Shown here: in pieces, positions 5,593 to 8,117 of the stretch
Numbering within the stretch: position 1 is the first letter of the stretch
Layout: every line of letters starts with the position of its first letter
IMG/VR virus record: IMGVR_UViG_2695420699_000009
Coordinates: 1-8,931 of that record
From: a virus
Taxonomy: Duplodnaviria; Heunggongvirae; Uroviricota; Caudoviricetes
Direction: 5' to 3' (one strand)
DNA: 8,931 nt
Made by a program: the position numbers and the translations under genes
The notes under the pieces: generated by a model
The model's database searches: none
What the model saw: only the letters and a program-made list of their open reading frames with translations
What the model was told of the DNA's origin: nothing

Positions 5593-6018
5593 TCAATGCA
5601 CTGCCACAGCATTTCCTGCCGGGCCACCACGGTTCATCTGATTGAAACCGGCGATTGCCACCGCGACAAAATCATCAGCGTCTCTCACCAGTCGCTCCCG
5701 CGTCTCCACCAGCTCCCGAAAATAAGCTGAACTGTGGCTGCGCATTCTGGCCACCAGCAAAGGTGGCATTGCCTTTTCGATCGCTGGTAACAACGCCAGA
5801 ATTTTTTCAACTGCATCAGGGGTGTCTTTCTCTATCCAGCGGAAAATTTTCTGGGTATTGCGAGCCAGGGCTTCCGGATGGCTGTCGTCGTACAGTTCAG
5901 GAAACGTCATACCCAACTCAAAATAAGCCTGGGTTATTCCAGCTGCCGGAACTTTTTCGCCATCAGGACGCGCCCAGGCATTCATCGCCATGCGGATGTG
6001 TTCATGCTTGATTTTCAT
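5593..6018 (-). CDS. CII-like regulator (Rac YdaT-like), 141 aa
   Basis: Immediately follows the Cro-like gene on the same strand; ATG at 6018 preceded by AGGAGC at 7-nt spacing and overlapping the upstream gene's 3' end by 17 nt. Family assignment by position and recollection. Confidence 0.7.
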   Translation of the reverse strand: MKIKHEHIRMAMNAWARPDGEKVPAAGITQAYFELGMTFPELYDDSHPEALARNTQKIFRWIEKDTPDAVEKILALLPAIEKAMPPLLVARMRSHSSAYFRELVETRERLVRDADDFVAVAIAGFNQMNRGGPAGNAVAVH

Positions 6019-6283
6019 GAATCAAGCTCCTAGAAAGTGGTTGTGTTAACGTTTTGGTATCTTCCAGCTCGGGCCAAATATTCATCCAATCAAAAGGCCT
6101 TAGTTGCTGACGTGTAACTTCACCATTACTGGCTCGCTCAATAAGGACACATAACGATGCCCCTAACACTTGACCTTTACTCAATGCCTTTCTTAGATAA
6201 CCGATGCTGGTACCACACTCGCATGCAAACATACGCTGTTCATCTGACGAAAGAGAATTGAGAAATATTCTTAATTCTTCCAT
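6002..6283 (-). CDS. Cro-like HTH regulator (Rac YdaS-like), 93 aa
   Basis: First gene of the minus-strand operon, divergent from the repressor; ATG at 6283 preceded by AAGGAG at 5-nt spacing; HTH-like segment around TSIGYLRKALSKGQ. Confidence 0.75.
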   Translation of the reverse strand: MEELRIFLNSLSSDEQRMFACECGTSIGYLRKALSKGQVLGASLCVLIERASNGEVTRQQLRPFDWMNIWPELEDTKTLTQPLSRSLIHENQA

Positions 6284-6308
6284 AGCTACTCCTTAGTAAA
6301 CACAGCAA

Positions 6309-6390
6309 AGAATACCCATAGGTAAACAAAAGTCAATACCCATAGGTTGTTTACCTTGCGGTAATCGCATCTATTATTTACCTATGGATA
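6309..6390. promoter_or_regulatory. OR-like divergent promoter region with three copies of a 12-bp palindromic operator (consensus TACCyATrGGTA)
   Basis: Operators at 6313-6324 (TACCCATAGGTA), 6337-6348 (TACCCATAGGTT) and 6379-6390 (TACCTATGGATA, overlapping the repressor ATG). Candidate minus-strand promoter: -35 TTGACT (6336..6331), -10 TATTCT (6314..6309). Candidate plus-strand promoter: -10 TATTAT (6372-6377), placing the start at or near the ATG. Confidence 0.6.
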
Positions 6391-6803
6391 AATATGAATT
6401 TAGACGACAGCAACTCATCAAAATTCGTGATGAGAAATGCGATGGTAAAGCGGTTAACGTGGCCAGAAAGATCGGGCGCGAGCCTTCTTATGTATCAAGA
6501 ATGTTGTACCCAGAGGGGAAAAAGGGAAAAAAACGGATCGCTGATGATATGGTGGAGATTATCGAAGAGTCCTTTGGGTTACCCCGGGGATGGATGGATG
6601 GTATCGTTTCATCATCAACGAACACAGCCTCCAGTTATGAAACAAGGGTTCTAACGCCACGACAACGTATTTTTTTAGATCTCTTAGACGAACTGCCAGA
6701 AAGTGAAGCGGATAAATTATTAAAAACTCTTGAAGAGAAAAAACAGTATTACAATATGATCTACGAAGAAATCCGTAAAAAGAAAGCACAAAACGCATCA
6801 TAG
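6384..6803 (+). CDS. CI-type prophage repressor, 139 aa, XRE-like HTH with a DicA/RacR-like C-terminal region
   Basis: Divergent from the Cro-like gene. HTH-like segment AVNVARKIGREPSYVSRML. The C-terminal part (LTPRQRIFLDLLDELPESEADKLL...) resembles the DicA C-terminus as I recall it. No SD upstream, consistent with a leaderless transcript. Confidence 0.8.
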   Translation: MDKYEFRRQQLIKIRDEKCDGKAVNVARKIGREPSYVSRMLYPEGKKGKKRIADDMVEIIEESFGLPRGWMDGIVSSSTNTASSYETRVLTPRQRIFLDLLDELPESEADKLLKTLEEKKQYYNMIYEEIRKKKAQNAS

Positions 6804-6845
6804 CTCACCAAACAACTAGTCACCAGTTAAGACACCGCAAAAAGT

Positions 6846-6886
6846 TACCCATGGGTATTTACTTTTTAAATACCTATGGGTATCCT
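6846..6886. promoter_or_regulatory. OL-like operator pair and candidate rightward early promoter
   Basis: Same motif as in OR: TACCCATGGGTA (6846-6857, perfect palindrome) and TACCTATGGGTA (6871-6882), 25 bp centre to centre. Candidate -35 TTTACT (6858-6863) and -10 TATCCT (6881-6886) with a 17-bp spacer, firing on the plus strand. Confidence 0.5.
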
Positions 6887-7207
6887 TCTTTTCATGCCAA
6901 CCCACCCCGCCCCACAGAATGCAGGGCAATACTTTGAGTTACCAGGCAGTGGTCAGGGGTTAAGTAGCCAGCCCGAGGCGTAAGAACATGACGGCAGGGT
7001 TCAACTTTAATAACTATGCAGCAGGTTTTTGTTCCGCTACCCCGGCGTTAAGGGGAAACAGAGGATTTCTCAGTGGGCGAAGTCAAACATCAGAATGGAA
7101 GGCATCCAGGGATCAGCAAAGAAACAGCGATGGCGCTTTATATTGATATCAGCGCCATTGCCGGACAGGTAAGAATTATCAGAGCGGTAACTAAGCGGTA
7201 TGCGCCT

Positions 7208-7408
7208 TTACTTCAGAAAGTCTCTGGTGAGTGCACCGAAGATATTGTCAACGATTTCGTCATCAAACTGCGAGGACTCATCTTCAGTTACAAGGTGACC
7301 ACAATTTTTGCAGATGGCTCCCGCGAAACTGTCAGAGCCATGCGGTTTAAAGGATGTGTCAAAGACTTCGCCGCCACATTCTGGGCAAGAAAACTTGATT
7401 GTATTCAT
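7208..7408 (-). CDS. Small Cys4 zinc-ribbon protein with an acidic C-terminal tail, 66 aa
   Basis: Two CxxCG knuckles (CPECGG and CKNCGH) 20 residues apart. ATG at 7408 preceded by GAGAGGAAA at ~9-nt spacing; the ORF-track start at 7414 is a TTG. Oriented opposite to the surrounding plus-strand early operon. A plus-strand ORF (7073-7429) fully overlaps it; the zinc-ribbon motif decided the call. Confidence 0.55.
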   Translation of the reverse strand: MNTIKFSCPECGGEVFDTSFKPHGSDSFAGAICKNCGHLVTEDESSQFDDEIVDNIFGALTRDFLK

Positions 7409-7500
7409 AACCAATTTCCTCTCGAGTAACAGCCGCCTCAGAGGATACCACCTCGCCTGACGTGGTTAAAAGCAGGCAACGCTAACCACAAGGAGCCGAC

Positions 7501-8059: not shown

Positions 8060-8117
8060 TTTCTGGTGACGTTTGGCGGTATCAGTTTTACTCCGTGGCT
8101 GCTCTGCCGCCCTTTTT
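8060..8117 (+). ncRNA. dicF: DicF-like small RNA (ftsZ-targeting sRNA of Qin-type prophages)
   Basis: TTTCTGGTGACGTTTGGCGGTATCAGTTTTACTCCGTGGCTGCTCTGCCGCCCTTTTT matches my recollection of E. coli DicF almost base for base. It ends in a GC-rich stem plus T-run and lies ~170 nt upstream of the dicB-like gene, as in the Qin dicB operon. Ends are approximate, since DicF is made by processing. Confidence 0.7.

Follow-up and report, generated by a model that had tools for sequence, protein, structure and literature searches.

How is a prophage repressor made when no ribosome-binding site precedes its start codon, and through which operator might it limit its own synthesis? Both questions are raised by a 139-aa ORF in the window, as we call the whole 8,931-nt (8.9-kb) stretch of DNA that was analysed. 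The DNA comes from a lambdoid (Qin/Rac/Sp12-like) E. coli prophage, of which it is the early and immunity region. Its minus strand carries a DnaC-like gene and a replication-initiator gene beside genes of the ydaT and ydaS types; on the plus strand the 139-aa ORF is followed by ydfC, the DicF RNA and the dicB side. The genes and the RNA that matter here are:

5593–6018, minus strand: cII-like gene of the YdaT family (Pfam YdaT, phrog_163)
6002–6283, minus strand: cro-like gene of the YdaS family (Pfam YdaS, phrog_35)
6384–6803, plus strand: repressor gene, an ORF of 139 aa and the CI analogue (phrog_5736 'transcriptional regulator', E = 6e-70)
8061–8112, plus strand: DicF antisense sRNA (full-length Rfam RF00039, 75 bits), lying after ydfC in the operon on the pL side

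The operator region (6284–6420) is present at an identity of at least 88% in 821 of 5,426 complete E. coli genomes, the best identity among them being 97.8%, and RefSeq labels the 139-aa protein in those genomes a 'hypothetical protein'. Carriers of the module include CFT073, JJ1886 and the O157:H7 strain Z903. The module sits in defective Qin/Rac-like prophages with pseudogenes nearby, and many copies lie in cryptic prophages. Near-identical phage genomes were searched as well; the immunity module was found in none of them, and the matches covered the flanks only.

We begin with the start codon, which is also the predicted transcription start:

6384–6386, plus strand: ATG start codon of the repressor gene, the sole possible start, with A6384 as the predicted +1

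An in-frame TAA stands at 6297–6299 and neither ATG, GTG nor TTG occurs between it and 6384, so that 6384 is the only possible start. An alternative start was rejected on these grounds and because the N-terminus is conserved; homologues of the repressor align from residue 1. The original prediction had noted that this ATG lacks an SD, and it does: no purine-rich SD is found in the 20 nt before the ATG (ATCGCATCTATTATTTACCT), and the anti-SD duplex energy is +1.9 kcal/mol, compared with −8.6 kcal/mol for the cro-like gene, which has AAGGAG at 6294–6289. In the MFE fold of the predicted mRNA the first 9 nt are unpaired; the 5′ structure as a whole is unremarkable (z −0.56) and argues neither way.

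Annotation of this N-terminus varies among homologues. Seven of them (P0036, P0040, P0059, P0064, P0082, P0009 and P0028) have been extended N-terminally by gene callers, to MLMSMDKYE, MVNDVKIAPMDKYE or MHNYHYHMDKYE, extensions that reach into the operator and promoter sequence and probably arise as artefacts of the absent SD. A second ATG, out of frame at +11 of the repressor gene, opens an 86-aa ORF (6394–6654, plus strand). One frameshifted repressor allele (P0010) begins at this +11 ATG and then rejoins the repressor frame; it is likely a pseudogene.

Three elements upstream of the ATG resemble parts of a pRM-like promoter and, on the other strand, a pR-like promoter:

6350–6355, plus strand: −35 hexamer TTTACC of the pRM-like promoter, followed by a 16-nt spacer; its TACC is the left half of operator O3
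6372–6377, plus strand: −10 hexamer TATTAT of the pRM-like promoter, followed by the 6 nt TTACCT and then the ATG
6309–6336, minus strand: pR-like promoter of the cro-like gene (−35 TTGACT at 6336–6331, 16-nt spacer, −10 TATTCT at 6314–6309)

The −10-like TATTAT had been placed 7 bp upstream of the ATG in the original prediction, and the spacing is correct, with 6 nt in between and A6384 as the seventh. Together with TTTACC and the 16-nt spacer it forms the only plus-strand promoter-like match within 5900–7100. Both hexamers are imperfect (−35 at 4/6 positions, −10 at 5/6), and the activity of the promoter may consequently depend on activation. Matches to the promoter pattern occur at chance level (2 sites found against 2.3 ± 1.7 in shuffles), so the weight of the promoter call comes from the comparative data. 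What the window itself presents is the set of features of a leaderless mRNA, namely an AUG start, an absent SD and a −10 element directly upstream of the start codon.

For the comparison, 44 loci with the same DNA-binding domain (the 'MDKYE' family) were assembled, the window included. They come from Enterobacterales, Aeromonas, Xanthomonadales, Neisseria, Burkholderiales and Nitrosomonadales and from the phages mEp043 and CharmingMan, and their intergenic sequence is otherwise well diverged. The gene starts with ATG, followed by codons for D/N-K-Y, in 44 of 44 loci, although related loci are not independent and these and the following counts overstate the number of independent observations. 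A −10-like hexamer, defined as TAnnnT with at least 4/6 matches to TATAAT, ends 7–8 nt before the ATG in 29 of the 44, against at most 4 at any other offset from 1 to 50; the 15 loci without a qualifying TAnnnT at the expected offset mostly have hexamers of the GAAAAT or TTGAAT type there. TTTACC lies 34–37 nt upstream of the ATG in 35 loci (34–35 nt in 30), and 28 of the 44 have a pyrimidine at −1. SD-like pairing is weak, with a median anti-SD energy of −2.8 kcal/mol and values of −6 or lower in 3/44; in one of these three (L007) the GGAGG lies inside the promoter spacer. Conserved geometry, an ATG and a weak SD are the outcome expected from selection for a promoter with its +1 at the A of the ATG. 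From this we infer that transcription of the repressor gene starts at or next to its ATG, as with lambda cI from pRM; the claim had been made for the window before, and it is now supported by a geometry conserved across the 44 loci, lambda and PaaR2.

The protein encoded from this ATG belongs with the phage repressors. A Pfam search returned no match and no S24 (PF00717) domain, and a sequence search of the PDB gave nothing significant. The AlphaFold (AF2) model (pLDDT 85) has an XRE-type HTH domain, a disordered linker (residues 76–87) and a helical C-terminal part; at 139 aa and with this helical C-terminus, the protein is not a LexA-type S24 CI. When the model was submitted to Foldseek, the best PDB matches were phage repressors. 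The top match, Rep of Salmonella phage SPC32H (PDB 5d4z/5d50), is marginal (E = 7e-4, TM 0.44) and shares with the window repressor an XRE-type HTH and a helical C-terminal part without a peptidase domain. SPC32H Rep is inactivated by an antirepressor, and the likeness is uninformative on the transcript start; no antirepressor gene was seen in the window. Residues 1–86 share 65% identity with the cI of coliphage mEp043 and 65–80% with the N-terminal domains found in many prophage repressors of the LexA type (S24). The C-terminal half is similar to the CI of phage Tritos (39% identity), a protein that is likewise not of the S24 type. That this DNA-binding domain is fused to S24 in mEp043 cI and in many Enterobacterales prophages points to a domain swap in the history of these sequences.

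The repressors of the mEp043 cI type, S24-type proteins of Enterobacterales, share the operator core and the O1/O2/O3 spacing of the window, and their genes show the same arrangement, TTTACC-16-TAGAAT-6 nt-ATG. They differ from the window repressor in carrying a C-terminal LexA-type S24 domain (PF00717) where the latter has a helical, Tritos CI-like one. Among the papers listed for mEp043, as judged from titles and the openings of abstracts, no functional study of its switch was found.

Experimental evidence on the transcript start is available for PaaR2, the repressor of the cryptic prophage CP-933P (Sakai Sp12) of E. coli O157:H7, with its promoter PRM933P. By sequence, the window repressor is a distant homologue of PaaR2 (pairwise BLASTP E = 8e-9, 23% identity over 90 aa), and the two have the N-terminal motif M-x-K-x-E-x-R-R in common. 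Both are small repressors without an S24 domain, and both occupy the same slot in the prophage, within an order of replication genes, ydaT, ydaS, repressor, ECs_2282-type zinc protein, ydfC and dicB. The start region of paaR2, GATAAT-TACCAC-ATG, has the geometry of the window. Its transcript starts at the ATG, as established by 5′ RACE, N-terminal sequencing (MQKKE) and intact mass, and low levels of PaaR2 activate PRM933P (PMC8630535). The two systems also differ. In CP-933P, paaR2 is followed by the toxin-antitoxin genes paaA2-parE2, which are absent from the window, and the PaaR2 operators are four 18-bp palindromes of the GTTTAGTAA type (PMC8630535), so that CP-933P is heteroimmune to the window. 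Between the YdaS proteins of the window and of CP-933P the identity is only 36%.

Lambda offers the same spacing in unrelated sequence, TAGATT-TAACGT-ATG next to TATTAT-TTACCT-ATG in the window, each a hexamer, 6 nt and an ATG; the window repressor itself lacks an S24 autocleavage domain, and its sequence shows no detectable similarity to that of lambda CI. The pRM transcript of lambda cI is leaderless (PMC10491246). In the telomere phage PY54 the cI mRNA likewise begins with AUG, as mapped by RACE (PMC4488713), and leaderless repressor genes are thus recurrent in lambda-like switches. The proteins and operators of PY54 are unrelated to those of the window, and PY54 cro is leaderless as well, whereas the cro-like gene of the window has a short leader of 18–19 nt with AAGGAG. 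Among the 44 loci, four beta-proteobacterial ones (L033, L035, L037 and L040) have the ATG of their cro-like gene 6 nt after a TAAATT inside O1, with TTGACT 17 nt upstream of it, in a region about 76–86 nt upstream of the repressor ATG. Judging by these motifs, both switch genes may be leaderless in the four loci, like those of PY54.

A different account would have the repressor made mainly from leadered transcripts that begin upstream, at a YdaT-activated PRE-type promoter or another one. TATTAT would then not be a working −10, and initiation would occur independently of an SD on the AU-rich, unstructured sequence before the ATG. The 20 nt upstream of the ATG are 70% A+T, the promoter match on its own is at the chance level noted above, and the window YdaT is 84% identical to the CP-933P YdaT, the activator of PRE933P, a likeness that makes a leadered transcript very likely during establishment. 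As the main source of repressor mRNA it is nonetheless improbable, since it leaves unexplained both the exact positions of the −10 (7–8 nt) and TTTACC (34–35 nt) in diverged relatives and the constant distances between operators and ATG. Lambda and CP-933P use the two routes side by side, with the leaderless transcript serving for maintenance. Because a leadered PRE-type transcript is probable here too, 'leaderless' in our reading covers the maintenance transcript only.

The operators bear on the second question. Across the family the operator core is TACC-N4-GGTA, and three operators stand at fixed centres from the ATG, −66.5/−67.5, −41.5/−42.5 and −26.5/−27.5, positions that fit a promoter whose +1 is the ATG. 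The window has five matches to TACCYATRGGTA with two mismatches or fewer, against 0.49 expected; O3 is a sixth site, with 0 mismatches to TACC-N4-GGTA, and in 37 related loci a homologous site lies at −26.5/−27.5. In the intergenic region we assign:

6313–6324: operator O1, TACCCATAGGTA, centred at −65.5 and overlapping the −10 of the cro-side promoter
6337–6348: operator O2, TACCCATAGGTT, centred at −41.5 and abutting the −35 of both promoters
6352–6363: operator O3, TACCTTGCGGTA, centred at −26.5 and overlapping the −35 hexamer and the spacer of the repressor promoter

O1 to O3 (6313–6363) thus lie between the divergent genes, whose starts are at 6283 and 6384, and overlap both promoter-like sites, as in a lambdoid switch; the pR-like promoter overlaps O1 and abuts O2. 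By PWM, O1 scores 18.1 bits and O3 11.0 bits. A terminator-like hairpin at 6357–6369, within O3, was disregarded; it has 5 bp and is of a kind found at chance frequency.

Like lambda, the window has its repressor and cro genes diverging across a tripartite operator region of about 100 bp, and the middle operator is centred almost alike in the two (OR2 at −42, O2 at −41.5). CI bound at OR2 activates pRM in lambda. The sites themselves differ, being 12 bp long with the form TACC-N4-GGTA in the window and 17 bp in lambda, and so does the third operator, which is centred at −26.5, lies 15 bp from O2 and includes the −35 in the window, whereas lambda OR3 is centred at −19 and lies 23 bp from OR2. 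Since O3 contains the −35 hexamer, it is the natural counterpart of OR3, a weaker third operator over the promoter core and upstream of +1. From its position and conservation, O3 is likely where the repressor gene is negatively autoregulated and where Cro acts. The centres of O2 and O3 lie only 15 bp apart, leaving 3 bp between the two 12-mers, a spacing conserved in the family; that of O1–O2, and of the two OL sites described below, is 24–25 bp. Dimers on O2 and O3 would sit on nearly opposite faces of the helix, and the logic of cooperativity may therefore differ from that of lambda.

The original prediction had given the role of third operator to another sequence:

6379–6390: operator-like 12-mer TACCTATGGATA with its centre on the start codon, a candidate for a weak fourth site

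An operator-like sequence is indeed present there, matching TACCYATRGGTA at 11 of 12 positions. As a third operator it does not hold up: the conserved third operator is O3 (6352–6363), which had been missed. Nor is an operator over the start codon an OR3-like arrangement, as had been proposed, since lambda OR3 falls short of the ATG and the 12-mer is centred on +1.

Could the 12-mer still be a real weak operator, at which excess repressor binds across +1, alone or together with O3? Scored with a PWM built from relatives only, it reaches 11.7 bits, the fifth-best site in the window and slightly above O3, at a level of which 0.35 hits are expected per window. Its left half, TTTACCT, is the left half of O3; the homologous PaaR2 region is reported with four repeats, not three (PMC8630535); and a weak site is what an autorepression site for high repressor concentrations is expected to look like. 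We nevertheless consider this use of the 12-mer unlikely. The single mismatch puts an A at position 10, which is G in 108 of 109 family operators. Seven of the 12 bases are codons 1–3 (ATG GAT A, for M-D-K) and are fixed by coding in all 44 loci. TACC before the ATG occurs in none of the other 43 loci, nor in front of any repressor gene of the mEp043 cI type, which makes the 12-mer specific to the lineage of the window. With the right half fixed, a given lineage would have TACC at −5 to −2 by chance with a probability of about 0.4%, and over roughly 20–40 lineages one such occurrence is unremarkable. In close relatives the site decays. Codon 2 is GAC in 80 of 80 IMG/VR relatives and in E. coli FY26, giving TACCTATGGACA with a score of 6.7 bits, where the best random PWM hit in the window scores 7.0 bits, and a Salmonella relative has TACTTATGGATA (with TACT) in place of the 12-mer. 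Key positions of the 12-mer thus drift without compensation.

The 12-mer at 6379–6390 is most likely a chance by-product of a TACC just upstream of the invariant ATG-GAT-AAA. It is at best a weak auxiliary site, and that it works as an operator at all seems rather unlikely. A more far-reaching possibility, equally doubtful, is that this E. coli/Salmonella lineage has gained a genuine fourth operator here, within an MDKYE family that is an ancient leaderless switch. Codons 1–3 would then serve at once as a leaderless 5′ end, as the N-terminus of a DNA-binding domain and as a half-operator, and the rare GAT allele of the window at 6389, as an operator-up variant, would give the repressor a lower lysogenic set point.

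The window differs from its relatives at three positions, having T where they have C at 6319 (the centre of O1), 6343 (the centre of O2) and 6389 (the third base of codon 2). The 80 IMG/VR relatives all have C at 6389, and nearly all have it at 6319 and 6343, a few having T at one of these; E. coli FY26 has C at each of them. Nine differences occur in 1.2 kb, and three of these are private substitutions of the window that fall in operator-like 12-mers. We do not take these substitutions as a signal of selection, the positions being weakly constrained ones (operator centres and a synonymous third base).

A second cluster of operators, as in the lambdoid switch, lies 43 nt past the stop codon of the repressor gene, ahead of the ydfC-DicF-dicB side:

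6846–6882: OL-like operator pair, TACCCATGGGTA at 6846–6857 and TACCTATGGGTA at 6871–6882, both perfect

Lambda likewise has such a cluster downstream of its repressor gene, with three OL sites where the window has two; the window also differs in having cro and cII genes of the YdaS and YdaT types. As RNA, the pair and its flanks (6846–6892) fold into a hairpin with a 16-bp stem (−24.4 kcal/mol, z −6.1) followed by U-rich UCCUUCUUUU. The hairpin could double as the terminator of the repressor transcript. It arises automatically, because two palindromic operators stand in tandem. No ORF lies between the repressor gene and the OL pair; beyond it come a 118-aa ORF (7073–7429, plus strand), which matches phrog_21318 (E = 3e-66), a 68-aa zinc-ribbon protein of the ECs_2282 family (7208–7414, minus strand) and ydfC. 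The 118-aa ORF and the zinc-ribbon gene overlap, and it is the latter that RefSeq annotates.

Taken together, these features are probably those of a lambda-type right operator region in which a weak sigma-70 promoter starts a leaderless maintenance mRNA at A6384, with O1 to O3 as assigned. This region would be the 100 bp that separate the repressor gene from the divergent cro-like gene, and dimers of the repressor would bind the TACC-N4-GGTA sites there. In a lysogen, repressor at O1 and O2 would block the cro-side promoter, and from O2, at −41.5, it would aid RNA polymerase at the weak TTTACC/TATTAT promoter. Transcription from there would start on A6384, leaving the maintenance transcript without a 5′ UTR or an SD. 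Leaderless translation in E. coli needs a 5′-terminal AUG for ribosome binding, and it is through such an AUG that an mRNA without a leader would be translated. Excess repressor, or the Cro-like protein after induction, would fill O3 and occlude the −35 hexamer. At establishment, a YdaT-activated PRE-type promoter probably gives a leadered transcript, as in CP-933P.

All of this supposes a promoter that still works. The repressor promoter could instead be a fossil of a mostly cryptic prophage, its features inherited and inactive; the module does lie in defective Qin/Rac-like prophages among pseudogenes, and frameshifted alleles of the repressor such as P0010 exist. Set against an ORF, operators and promoter elements that are all intact in the window, and a module that is intact in the 821 genomes with its operator region at 88% identity or above, this seems highly improbable, even if regulation may have decayed in cryptic-prophage copies of the module.

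A functional promoter with a leaderless maintenance transcript stays our preferred reading. The lambda-like inference behind the original prediction is sound and now has comparative and homology evidence behind it, and its assignment of the operator is wrong in detail. The arrangement is of a kind already known, of which the window is a further example: leaderless repressor genes are known in lambda cI, PaaR2 and PY54 cI, so the finding adds a member and not a principle. For the family it has several consequences. The MDKYE family, which spans beta- and gamma-proteobacteria and has no Pfam model, gains a true start codon for a repressor that gene callers often extend at the N-terminus. Its operator, TACC-N4-GGTA, and its three-operator layout are defined and are conserved from Neisseria to E. 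coli, and the likely autoregulatory operator is moved from 6379–6390 to 6352–6363. If confirmed, these loci would provide, beside lambda, a second and widespread natural system in which leaderless translation is coupled to a bistable switch.
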